From Nitrospirota bacterium (lineage in GTDB: Bacteria > Nitrospirota > UBA9217): a DNA stretch of 64,000 bases. The stretch lies in the NCBI GenBank assembly GCA_963749655.1, contig CAVVOB010000014.1, positions 54,199 through 118,198 on the forward strand, given 5' to 3'. This document shows, piece after piece, positions 42,241 through 51,922 of this stretch (positions are counted from its first letter, which is position 1; every line of letters starts with the position of its first letter). Under the pieces are notes generated by a model that saw only the letters and a list, made by a program, of their open reading frames with translations, was not told the origin of the DNA and searched no databases. The position numbers were made by a program, and so were the translations under genes.

Positions 42241-42297
42241 ATACCCCAAAAATACCCCGCCTAGGCCATTGACAGGAATTCCATATTACTATATTAA
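42241..42297 (+). promoter_or_regulatory. sigma70-type promoter P4 with upstream TACCC direct repeat
   Basis: ATACCCCAAAAATACCC (42241-42257), then N11, TTGACA (42269-42274), N17 and TATTAA (42292-42297). TATATT at N15 is an alternative -10. Confidence 0.6.
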
Positions 42298-42469
42298 TGC
42301 TTCATCGTAACGCGACATGTCTGAACTGACCCCCTCCGTTTGGACAGTCGTATGCCCTAATCTCTCTGAGTCCAATTATCCTAGAAAAAAAGAAACAATA
42401 CGTGTGGACTTTTTAGGGAGCTGTATTTACGGCGGGTCAATATTATGGCTGCGCCTCAGGAGGATGAAA

Positions 42470-45400
42470 ATGAGTTTACGTCTATTTTCAGTCACGCGTA
42501 TTTTTCTTTTTTCCGTCTTTATAACCGCGGCAGCTGCCTCGCCGGCGCTCTCTTTTGATACGGTCAAAGTAGTGCAAGCAGACGGATTCTTCACATTCCT
42601 GAATGCCAGGCAAATCGTCCGGACATCCTCAGGAAGAATCTACTATTTCACTGGAAGCGGAGCTGGAACGGGTCGCAGCGGATGGATTATGGTGAATACC
42701 TCGGTTGATGGCCAGACGTGGAATCTGCTTGAAAATCATTCATCATGGTATGAGCCTTCCGGCGTCGGTGTCGGCGTGGACAGTCGAAATATCATACATA
42801 TGATAGCGTTTGACGGAACCAAAATACCTTATTACCAGAAATACAACACATTGGACAGCCCCAAGGGCGACGGTTCCTGGGAACCGGTTGAACCACTGGA
42901 GAGTACTGCTGCTCTCTACGGCGCCTGGCAATGCGCTCTCGCATTGGATGCGAACGATGTCCCGCATGTCGTATATCAGTTGTCTGAAAGATACAAGGGA
43001 GAGTATAGAGGGGTCGTCTATTATGCAAACAAGGTCGGCGGAACATGGCATAAGACTGCGATTTGGCCGAAAGAGATTGGCAGCTTTGTGGACAGCGCCA
43101 CCATCGCCGTGGGGCCGGACAATATTCCTTATGTTCTCATGGGTACAAAGATCCTGAAAGGAAACGCGAACGACCCGACCGTTTTCGAATCTCAAGATCT
43201 CGGAGGCGGCAATTCTTTCGTGATCCACCAGAACGGAGATGTCAGAGTGGCATTGACGTTGAATGGTAACTATGCCAATTATCTTCACGACAACACGCAG
43301 GCGTGGACTTCAGGGTGGACAATGTCCGATTCCGGATCCCCGGACGCAGGCGGGCCGCTGATTCTGGTTGACGACGTTCCCTATGAAATAGAACTTCTCA
43401 GCGACGGCATCTGGCTGCGGAAGGAATTCGAAGCTCCTTTTCTTTTTTCAGCGAGAACAGGATATTCTAACTGGTGGAGCGTGACCACGAGATGGAGCTT
43501 CTATAATCACTATGACCCCGGAATGATTGATATCGGAACTCTTGGTCAGGACTCCTATAACTTGGGTTATTTCTATTTGTATGCGAACAATGTCCAGGTT
43601 ACGCCTCCCGATCCCCCTCCGGTGCCGACGGTGATTGATTTCAGCGGAGCCCCCTTGAAGTGGGTTACACCGGTCTATGCTGTATTCGCGGATAAGTCGA
43701 CTTTTCCGGCCGGCAGAACCGCTGTCTCTTGGGCATGGGACTTTGAAAACGATGGGACTGTGGATTCCACAGTGCAGAATCCCACGCACGTCTATACGAC
43801 ACCCGGAACCTATTCCGTCAAGCTGACGGTAACCGATTCGAGTGGAGAGGTGAACTCGAAGGTGAAGGCCGACTATATCGTGGTCGAGACAGATACAGAC
43901 GGTGACCGCTACGGCGATTCGCAGGACAATTGCCCGACCGTTTACAATCCCGATCAGTCTGACATGGACAACGACGGTATCGGCGACGCCTGCGATCAAA
44001 ACCAGGACCTCGTGAAACAAGCGGTTTACCGCACCGGGCTCAAGAAGGAGACTGCGAGCGAGGGTGCCGGAACCGACGTTGCCGCGATCATGATAGACGG
44101 GCTGTACACTGTCGCGAAGCGAATTCAGAAATCCACGGCAGGATACGACATACTGAGCTTCCGGTCCGATCTGGAGTCATCTCGTCTTGCCCAGTGCAAG
44201 ATAAAGCTTTATGTAAACGCCCTCTACAACAATGCTCCCCAGACGGTCCATGTTTATGCATACGCATCTGATGGTCTCGCGGTCCAGACGGGCACGGTGC
44301 TTAATTTCACTCTTTCCCCGGGCTGGAATACCCTAGATTTGAAGTCCCTTCTGGCGTCTATGGATGGTTTCGGCTTCATGAAATTCCGCGTTGCAGCGCC
44401 GGCGAACTGGATCGATATTTCGGAAGGGTCGATAGCGGCCGCGTATAGAGACACATGGGAAATGTCCGTTTCGCCCACGAGCATTGACTTCGGGAGCATC
44501 GAAACTGTCGGCTCCCAGGCGCGCAGGGTCATCGTGAAAAACGTCGGTACGGGGGACCTCATCGTCGGATCCTTTCCATCGCTGGCGGCGCCTTTTTACC
44601 TCAAGTCTGATGAGTGTTCGGGCATGACGCTCGGATCGGGTTTATCGTGCAAGGTATTCGTCAAGTTCGCGCCCACATCGAACGGAACGTACACGGCTTC
44701 CTTGACCGTTACTTCGAATGATGCCGATCATCCGGAGATCGGGATTTCGCTGACAGGGACGGCGGTCAGCGGATCCGGCATTACGGGCACGGTCGCGGAC
44801 GCATCCACAGGCCTCCCCCTGTCCCAGGCCGATATCACTTTCACGATGAAAAGACCGGGAAGTTCGAATCCGGATGACTACTATTACATGTATGGTAACG
44901 CGGTGTCCGCCATTGATCCGGACACTGATCTGGGGTTGTCTTTCACCGCAACGGAGGCCGGCGCTGTTCAGAAAAATGATGAGAGCAAGGTCGTCATCGA
45001 TGGCTCGTTGCTGCTTAAATTCAGAAATCCCTACAACGTCTCCGACCGGGTGAAGTTGACCTGGAACGGACTGGGGGGATATCATGCCAGCGAGGTAACG
45101 GGCCAGAGCTTTGTGTCGGGCATGACGGGAACGCTCACCAAGGTAAGTATTCCTCTCCTACGTAATTTCAGCGTCGACTCCCTGACCGGTACGGTCGTCC
45201 TCTATCTCAAGTCCGCCCTAGGCGCGGAGCAGTCCGCGATCCTCGCGGCAAGCGACCCCGTCGATGTCAACGAACTGTCTGACAGCGTTCCCGCGTGGTT
45301 CGACTTCACGTTCTCAACACCCGCACGCGTTACGAGCGGACAACCTTATTACCTGGAGTTGTACGATACAGGCAGGTACTGGGGAACGGGCAGCGCTTTT

Positions 45401-51871: not shown

Positions 51872-51884
51872 CAGCAGCTGACAG

Positions 51885-51922
51885 CGAGAGCCCCATTTTC
51901 ACCTTTGGGGCTCTCGTTTTTT
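51885..51922 (+). terminator. rho-independent terminator
   Basis: CGAGAGCCCC-loop-GGGGCTCTCG followed by TTTTTT. Confidence 0.85.

Follow-up and report, generated by a model that had tools for sequence, protein, structure and literature searches.

Within a 64,000-nucleotide (nt) stretch of a Nitrospirota genome (GenBank assembly GCA_963749655.1, contig CAVVOB010000014.1, forward-strand positions 54,199 to 118,198; hereafter the window), three consecutive genes encode a giant exported protein built from many domains, a small lipoprotein, and an exported protein that an earlier note on this DNA had called PLC-like (phospholipase C-like). The giant protein ends in a constant module of about 280 residues, which the earlier note missed and which, together with the two downstream genes, is the key feature defining a cassette; this cassette is widespread in anaerobic bacteria and uncharacterised. 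Judged by their anatomy and synteny, the three genes form one promoter-to-terminator operon (Table 1), as the earlier note had stated with correct coordinates and junctions: a 37-nt gap separates the first two genes (49034-49070), and the second and third share a TAATG overlap (49605-49609). Ribosome-binding sites are also part of this anatomy. In particular, that of the giant gene, AGGAGG at 42458-42463, lies 6 nt ahead of the ATG at 42470, with an in-frame ATG at 42464 as an alternative start; the extension of the open reading frame (ORF) up to 42317 lacks both a signal peptide and a ribosome-binding site. The terminator starts 14 nt past the last stop codon, with a folding free energy (ΔG) of -31.9 kcal/mol and a z-score of -8.4 relative to shuffled sequences.

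The same arrangement recurs in many other genomes. The first three contexts examined all encode, in the same order, a large multi-domain protein, a protein of about 175-190 residues and a protein of about 750 residues, and a scan of species-representative genomes found relatives of the third protein encoded in at least 561 places, from which 79 loci were kept. Across a synteny sample of 55 loci (taken from both sources, each including 2 kb or more of upstream sequence), the C-terminal module, the small protein and the third protein follow one another on one strand at 50 loci; the search for homologous three-gene units in other genomes, which the earlier note had recommended, thus found them. 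Intergenic gaps in the related cassettes are mostly below 400 nt, and the hosts include Nitrospirota, Desulfobacterota, Methylomirabilota, Rokubacteria and Acidobacteria. Several genomes contain two or three complete cassettes (loci L057, L063 and L066; L047 and L061; L046 and L062; here and below, L numbers denote related loci). The closest cassette to that of the window is 48-53% identical to it. Further, the mean pairwise identity is similar for the three components (about 0.39-0.42), and the pairwise identities of the components correlate with one another over 41 loci (Pearson coefficients of 0.37-0.58). Clustering of all ORFs in the related loci returned no additional universal partner, a search of the literature found no description of the cassette, and Pfam and NCBIfam do not cover it.

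Several kinds of gene accompany the cassette at some of these loci. Regulators of the response-regulator or sensor-kinase type, some of them sigma-54-dependent, lie near it in 10 loci. At nine loci, the gene for the third protein is immediately followed by one for a secreted protein of about 100 residues (for example, L015:4292-4627, L023:5392-5676, L033:12245-12577 and L034:12163-12501), which is possibly a fourth component. IS200/RAYT-type (Y1) transposase genes lie a few kb downstream at nine loci (for example, L012:8827-9789, L021:3510-4187, L038:12002-12886 and L081:3594-4316), and their closeness may mean that the cassette tends to occupy sites prone to recombination. The window contains no such fourth gene, no RAYT transposase and no response-regulator or sensor-kinase-type regulator.

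The C-terminal module is the only part common to the large proteins of related cassettes, across which these last 280 or so residues are 25-59% identical. When the window's giant protein was compared by BLASTP with the large proteins of L001 and L003, the final 275-286 residues aligned at 51% and 43% identity, respectively; outside the module, L001 shares only shorter matches among widespread repeat-type modules (CarboxypepD_reg, fn3 and Glucodextran_B) and L003 essentially none. The large ORFs of the related loci range from 266 to more than 3100 residues, and their passengers are wholly different from locus to locus, comprising FG-GAP (×13), Glucodextran_B (×7), RCC1, NHL, BACON, DUF7948, or PKD with a propeller. 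An exhaustive profile search with the module identified 2762 representative proteins at E ≤ 1e-30. Among the 150 best representatives, 138 (proteins of 309-3499 residues) have the module at the extreme C-terminus, meaning that the match reaches the end of the profile and stops no more than 4 residues from the end of the protein. The module is a strictly C-terminal unit, found by itself, after a signal peptide, or after passengers short or long.

The small C-terminal alpha/beta domain that the earlier note described in the giant protein is visible as the last domain of the module in an AlphaFold2 model (predicted local distance difference test, pLDDT, of 95), where it follows two Ig sandwiches and consists of four helices and a four-stranded sheet. 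It matches no Pfam family in any of 46 members, a Foldseek search with the module returned only generic tandem immunoglobulin-like (Ig) proteins, and calling the domain NTF2-like would be a reading of its modelled topology only. Some relatives of the third protein (P0067) bear additional Ig domains at their C-terminus, and these match the module's first Ig domain only. A single ORF at L058:3899-5404 joins the module to the small protein; there, a Gly codon replaces the stop codon and an intact signal peptide follows, so this run-on ORF probably arose through loss of the stop codon or through an error in sequencing, and it was not counted as a Rosetta-stone fusion.

Ahead of its module, the giant protein is a mosaic whose composition, as listed in the earlier note (PKD, thrombospondin type-3 repeats, three choice-of-anchor-D/HYDIN Ig domains, CarboxypepD_reg, two Lcl modules and FN3), is reproduced by Pfam and NCBIfam. 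The pair formed by CarboxypepD_reg and fn3 directly before the module is also found in that position in L001 and several other relatives. Two regions, residues 27-410 and 770-1130, have no matches in Pfam or the PDB. The first of these had been called propeller-like; self-BLAST finds no internal repeat in it, and a weak motif with a period of about 50 residues, D-x-x-[IV]-P-[HY]-[VI], is seen by eye only. It has seven homologues among 5.8 billion proteins, all unannotated, and among the related loci it is shared only with the large protein of L038 (45% identity). The cassette at L038 (6114-11807) looks decayed, with the small protein undetected and the gene for the third protein split or truncated; a Y1 transposase gene comes next. 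The second region (44771-45853, forward strand; about 360 residues) recurs in L022, L023, L028, L041, L058, L067 and L069 at 26-35% identity and is probably an undescribed passenger domain. The absence of a visible anchor motif, noted earlier by eye, holds at the level of profile models: in Pfam and NCBIfam at E ≤ 0.01, no LPXTG, PEP-CTERM, type IX secretion system C-terminal domain (T9SS CTD), MYXO-CTERM, autotransporter-barrel or RTX/type I secretion system (T1SS) model matches the giant protein, and matches to MtsC and Omp28 are confined to the thrombospondin repeats. Taken by itself, the giant protein is of the ordinary large-adhesin kind.

Table 1. Features of the cassette, its promoter and its surroundings. 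Positions are those of the window unless a locus is named; residues of the giant protein are counted from 42464, and its domains were called with Pfam and NCBIfam.
Feature	Position	Strand	Details
Tyrosine-recombinase (integrase) pseudogene	41262-42060	+	several frameshifts and stops, 44-46% G+C; directly upstream of the promoter
Operon promoter	42242-42297	+	TACCCC-N5-TACCCC (42242-42258), TTGACA (42269-42274), TATATT/TATTAA (42290-42297)
Direct repeat ATACCCTnAAAATACCCC	1635-1650	-	site in window
Direct repeat ATACCCTnAAAATACCCC	32269-32284	+	site in window
Direct repeat ATACCCTnAAAATACCCC	42242-42257	+	site in window
Direct repeat ATACCCTnAAAATACCCC	52532-52547	+	site in window
Direct repeat ATACCCTnAAAATACCCC	L001:3921-3936		upstream of the homologous giant gene, identical architecture
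Giant-protein ORF, longest form	42317-49033	+	2238 residues
Giant exported multi-domain protein, likely start	42470-49033	+	about 2187-2189 residues, with Sec signal peptide MSLRLFSVTRIFLFSVFITAAAASPALS
N-terminal domain	42542-43693	+	residues 27-410, unannotated
PKD and thrombospondin type-3 calcium-binding repeats (TSP3)	43700-44014	+	PKD residues 413-473, TSP3 residues 468-517
Variable passenger core	44462-47632	+	Ig, CarboxypepD_reg, Glucodextran_B and Lcl_C modules, with unannotated residues 770-1130
Choice-of-anchor D/HYDIN-type Ig, three copies			residues 667-765, 1270-1370 and 1625-1723
CarboxypepD_reg, two copies			residues 1130-1182 and 1742-1820
Glucodextran_B, two copies			residues 1189-1264 and 1915-1997
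Lcl_C lectin-like modules, two			residues 1403-1509 and 1527-1623
Second CarboxypepD_reg and fn3/purple-acid-phosphatase-N-like domain	47687-48196	+	residues 1742-1820 and 1828-1911
Conserved C-terminal module	48173-49030	+	residues 1904-2189: Glucodextran_B-like Ig, PKD-like Ig, alpha+beta domain of about 100 residues
Small lipoprotein gene	49071-49607	+	178 residues, lipobox LLSGC
Third gene (PLC-like)	49607-51871	+	754 residues, exported
Intrinsic terminator ending the unit	51885-51922	+	13-bp G+C-rich stem, then U6

The second gene encodes a predicted lipoprotein, in agreement with the earlier note, with a signal peptide and a lipobox (LLSG; MTKYRMFTVLFLLLLLSG-C19) that fits the pattern [LVI][ASTVI][GAS]C. 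After Cys19, the protein continues as a CarboxypepD_reg-like (transthyretin-like) beta-sandwich, matching PF13620 with an E-value of 1.6e-5, which is below that family's cut-off, and the conserved core of its family lies in this N-terminal sandwich (G-[KR]-V-[IV]-D-x-E-T-x-x-P-I-E-G-A-V-V). A lipobox-type Cys after the signal peptide is present in 40 of 62 relatives, and in the remaining 22 the signal is either a cleavable one of the non-lipoprotein type or a signal anchor; by this prediction, lipidation of the small protein is common and not obligatory.

The third protein begins with a signal peptide (predicted cleavage AKG|Y25), and its AlphaFold2 model (pLDDT of 86; predicted template modelling score, pTM, of 0.86) has four parts: a helical domain (about 25-310, with a long helix at 388-413), a beta insert (321-383), and two beta-sandwich regions (416-565 and 612-754). 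More than 1200 relatives (clusters) were found in Nitrospirota, Desulfobacterota, Brocadiales, Schekmanbacteria and others, all of them annotated as hypothetical, and no Pfam or NCBIfam model matches the protein. The helical domain, which appears to be of the zinc PLC/P1-nuclease type, carries the motifs H31, E86-D87, H96-F-H98, H200-x3-D204-x5-H210-x-R-N-D and E236, so that the zinc ligands follow one another in the order His, Asp, His, H-x3-D-x5-H and His/Glu. An alignment of 46 relatives, 36-50% identical to the window's protein, shows how strongly these positions are conserved: E86, D87, H96, F97, P100, H200, D204, H210 and R212 are invariant, H31 is present in 44 (the remaining two rows being gapped), H98, N213 and D214 in 44 each, and E236 in 38. 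The counterpart of the fourth His is uncertain, as H216 is present in 31 of the 46 and the window's protein has H218. Two Cys near the C-terminus are also conserved in the family consensus.

The residue that follows the predicted cut is Y in 18, W in 11, F in 7 and L in 7 of the 46 sequences; it is aromatic in 36, as is Y25 in the window's protein, and it sits 5-6 residues ahead of the conserved His. In P1 nuclease, the N-terminal residue ligates zinc, and the pairing of a predicted mature N-terminal aromatic residue with a conserved His is one that we take to recall Trp1...His6 of that enzyme. The spacing H-x3-D-x5-H-x2-N is the same as in Bacillus cereus phospholipase C (H118, D122, H128 and N131), and hhalign pairs H200, D204, H210 and E236 with H118, D122, H128 and E146 of 1AH7, to which the template sequence was confirmed to be identical, although with weak statistics (E = 0.016, at a probability of 2.8% with a single-sequence template). 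PF00882 is the only Pfam family matched by more than one relative. Its matches occur in 13 of the 46 (best E = 5.6e-5), all under the gathering score of 26.8 bits, and they span the central His-Asp-His region in the three relatives checked. Zhang et al. (PMC3482391) tied Het-C domains to the PLC/P1 superfamily on similarly borderline statistics. The ligand set is that of the superfamily's trinuclear zinc site. From these conserved ligands and sub-threshold matches, the designation PLC-like appears right at the level of the superfamily, with the predicted family being a new, unannotated branch, and the third protein is probably an active metallo-phosphoesterase.

Transcription of the operon is predicted to start from a promoter with a TACCC direct repeat, whose period is 11 bp and which lies 10 nt upstream of the TTGACA hexamer, at about positions -62 to -46; this location suggests that it is UP-element-like or a site for a class I activator. 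The earlier note had proposed the repeat as a host-wide promoter element, and its distribution bears this out. The window holds four TACCC-N6-TACCC sites, compared to 0.04 expected, and all four are followed after 9-10 nt by a TTGACA-like hexamer and have a -10-like box as well. The L001 site stands at a homologous operon in a metagenome-assembled genome of the Nitrospirota class UBA9217 with 58% G+C, and matches to a 20-base form of the pattern occur in at least 120 metagenome contigs, ahead of very diverse genes, when only a few chance matches were expected by a rough estimate; the consensus among the metagenome matches listed is ATACCCTnAAAATACCCCATCgaAaTccTTGACAA. As the element is lineage-wide, the operon uses its lineage's general type of promoter, which argues that the cassette is well integrated in the lineage. 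Beyond the promoter, the leaders of the window and L001 operons show no conservation, and an Rfam search of the long leader and its flanks gave nothing credible. Another of the window's TACCC promoters is directly followed by a gene (32357-35629, forward strand) for a 1090-residue STAND NTPase-TPR-BTAD regulator (SARP/AfsR-like) that has no DNA-binding domain by Pfam. The TACCC-repeat promoter is a separate lead, being a lineage-wide regulatory element that can be studied by itself.

The composition of the unit was described earlier as clearly AT-richer than its surroundings, and this is only partly so. Overall, the unit has 52.0% G+C, compared to 57.4% outside it in the window, and the difference is uneven. 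The description holds for the lipoprotein and third genes, whose G+C contents at third codon positions (GC3) of 0.475 and 0.525 are 1.5-2 standard deviations (SD) under the window mean (0.675 ± 0.10, from a crude reference set of 40 other ORFs), for the two ends of the giant gene (its first 400 codons and its last 190, with a GC3 of 0.51-0.60), and for the flanks at 41000-42500 and 52000-53000, which are non-coding or pseudogene and have 40-46% G+C. In contrast, the bulk of the giant gene (codons 400-1900) has a host-like GC3 of 0.65-0.72. In L001, L047 and L061, whose hosts have 52-58% G+C, the homologous small and third genes lie 3.5-16.5 percentage points below their flanks. This recurrence in other high-G+C hosts makes low G+C a property of these genes and not proof of recent import. 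No tRNA gene and no att-like flanking direct repeats were found around the low-G+C block. A Fic-domain gene (39997-41007) lies just ahead of the integrase pseudogene, and the block is flanked by two lipoprotein genes (37592-39703 and 53023-55092, both on the forward strand) that are paralogues over their first 350 or so residues (48% identity, including PKD). Their C-terminal halves differ, the first having NHL repeats; the second gene has a TACCC promoter about 490 nt upstream, with a long AT-rich leader in between.

Elsewhere in the window, a gene on the reverse strand (9435-12497) encodes a Tat-exported formate dehydrogenase catalytic subunit with an in-frame TGA at 11904-11906 (ARV-U-HGP). 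This is a classic selenocysteine site, so the two ORFs listed there are one formate dehydrogenase gene. An FdhE gene (6989-7954) lies on the same strand.

The operon anatomy, the conservation of the cassette, the domain content, the export signals on all three proteins and the conserved metal ligands are shown. The reading of them that we prefer, with a probability of about 0.45, is that the cassette encodes a three-component extracytoplasmic complex in which variable passengers are docked beside a lipoprotein and a zinc phosphoesterase. The product of the first gene would be exported by Sec, with an N-terminal passenger that is freely exchangeable and here adhesin-like (Lcl_C, PKD, thrombospondin calcium repeats and Ig domains), and the constant C-terminal module would serve as its docking domain. 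By way of this domain, the giant protein, the lipoprotein and the zinc enzyme would come together in a 1:1:1 ratio at the cell envelope, with the lipoprotein acting as a membrane tether (in this genome, by a lipid anchor through Cys19). The passenger would provide binding specificity, and the enzyme would act on phosphodiesters of the bound material or of the envelope. One-to-one pairing, multiple cassettes per genome and moderate co-variation are together more readily explained by a stoichiometric complex than by a shared sorting machinery.

Several points weigh against this reading. Co-transcription is predicted from anatomy and synteny, and the complex, its surface location, catalysis and the substrate are all things that we infer. 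The three genes include no outer-membrane channel, while the host is presumed to be diderm and the giant protein has 2187 residues. A lipid tether would not be a universal mechanism, since only 40 of the 62 small-protein relatives have a lipobox. For the enzyme, the hhalign probability with 1AH7 is just 2.8%, the window's third protein has no PF00882 match even at E ≤ 10 and reaches no curated cut-off, and a profile of the family found nothing among PDB sequences at E ≤ 10. A Foldseek search of the PDB with the whole 754-residue model ranked transglutaminase-like and other multi-beta-sandwich proteins highest, at template modelling (TM) scores of about 0.1, with no PLC or P1 nuclease in the top 50; the beta-rich regions dominate this ranking, which makes it uninformative for the catalytic domain.

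The rival readings differ mainly in the role that they give to the enzyme. A substrate-capture or scavenging complex would have the giant protein as a scaffold that binds particles, polymers or cells, the small protein as an accessory or chaperone, and the zinc enzyme, a nuclease or a phospholipase, as a phosphodiesterase secreted to free phosphate or nutrients from whatever has been bound; this reading overlaps with the docked complex proposed above, the enzyme's purpose being the main difference. Conserved zinc ligands of a catalytic type agree with it, as do passengers rich in lectin-like, carbohydrate-binding or surface-binding modules and hosts that, by their record titles, appear to be sediment and groundwater anaerobes. 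However, scavenging leaves unexplained why the constant module of 280 residues and the small beta-sandwich protein accompany each enzyme gene one-to-one. No signals of a phosphate regulon were seen, and the promoter is of the general lineage-wide type. We consider this reading unlikely. Somewhat less probable again is an adhesin-guided antagonism, where the third protein would be a toxin of the phospholipase or nuclease type, directed at neighbours bound by the adhesin, and the small (lipo)protein its immunity factor or inhibitor. The PLC/P1/Het-C superfamily does include toxin domains of conflict systems (PMC3482391), the genes are paired one-to-one, several diverged cassettes coexist in a genome, the small protein is predicted by its export signal to be located in the envelope, and mobile elements are close by, as the RAYT-type transposase genes in nine loci and the integrase remnant next to the window's cassette. 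But polymorphic toxins vary a C-terminal toxin behind a constant N-terminus, and the pattern here is the reverse. Moreover, the enzyme is encoded separately, is well conserved and carries a signal peptide of its own, the alike identities of the components (about 0.39-0.42) give no sign of fast effector-immunity divergence, and domain scans revealed no markers of type VI or type VII secretion systems (T6SS, T7SS), contact-dependent inhibition (CDI) or RHS.

A further alternative makes the enzyme a dedicated one for maturation or attachment that works on the envelope itself. The zinc protein would cleave or transfer a lipid or lipopolysaccharide (LPS) head group and thereby attach the C-terminal module, in a form of sorting that needs no sortase. 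A strictly C-terminal tag, an enzyme gene that adjoins the gene of the tagged protein so consistently (50 of 55 loci) and a giant protein with no known sorting signal would all be expected of such a system; yet known sorting tags are short and one enzyme serves many substrates, whereas the tag here would be three folded domains and each substrate has an enzyme gene of its own, and no such chemistry is known for the PLC/P1 superfamily. We find this reading very doubtful. The broader proposal that the module, the small protein and the zinc protein constitute a new, self-contained system by which anaerobic diderms attach or display very large variable proteins on their envelope, with the enzyme performing the attachment or maturation as a lipid- or LPS-directed functional analogue of sortase or exosortase, strikes us as only slightly less so. 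Finally, three unrelated genes could have come together by chance on a recently imported AT-rich island, a notion that the integrase pseudogene, the flanks of 40-46% G+C and the GC3 of the two downstream genes, 1.5-2 SD below the window mean, would accommodate. The gene order, kept in 50 of 55 loci and several phyla, already contradicts it. The bulk of the giant gene is host-like, low G+C recurs in the homologous genes of other high-G+C hosts, the promoter is of the lineage's own type and is found at the homologous operon of L001, and neither a tRNA gene nor flanking direct repeats were detected; the probability that remains for a chance assembly is minute.

Giant exported proteins are common in uncultivated bacteria of sediment and groundwater, and how they are retained is usually unexplained where a classical anchor is lacking. 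The logic of the cassette is simple and testable: the passenger varies, the C-terminal module stays constant, and there are two dedicated partners. Resolving it would annotate thousands of hypothetical genes and define a new branch of the PLC/P1 nucleases, and it might reveal a new mode of surface-protein display.

The cassette resembles several known systems in part. The third protein resembles the zinc PLCs, S1/P1 nucleases and Het-C proteins (PF00882, PF02265; 1AH7) in its predicted exported, alpha-helical domain, where the ligands come in the same order (a His near the start, an Asp, H-F-x-[ND]-P, H-x3-D-x5-H with an Asn after it, and a Glu further on), and in the aromatic residue at its predicted mature N-terminus. 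In contrast to them, it is three times longer, has a beta insert and two large beta-sandwich regions, passes no curated threshold, and is encoded downstream of a module-bearing protein and a small beta-sandwich protein. The giant protein shares with large adhesins (Legionella Lcl, Bap-like and choice-of-anchor D proteins) its Sec signal, its arrays of Ig-like, PKD, fn3 and CarboxypepD_reg domains, and its Lcl_C lectin-like modules and calcium-binding thrombospondin repeats, but it has no LPXTG, PEP-CTERM, T9SS CTD, autotransporter or T1SS signal, and instead carries the constant Ig-Ig-alpha/beta module of 280 residues and is followed by two dedicated genes. The likeness to Tle/Tli pairs of phospholipase effectors and lipoprotein immunity proteins lies in a secreted phosphoesterase-like protein beside a small envelope (lipo)protein, present in multiple diverged copies; unlike in those pairs, there are no secretion-system markers, the enzyme is conserved and not polymorphic, and a giant third partner with a constant C-terminus is added. 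Sorting systems (T9SS CTD with PorU and PorV, PEP-CTERM with exosortase, and LPXTG with sortase) likewise combine variable passengers, one strictly C-terminal element and specific partner genes. However, their element is a short tag or a single CTD of about 80 residues, compared to three folded domains in the cassette, and their partners are encoded once per genome, whereas those of the cassette stand one-to-one beside each cargo and are not homologous to sortase, exosortase or Por proteins.

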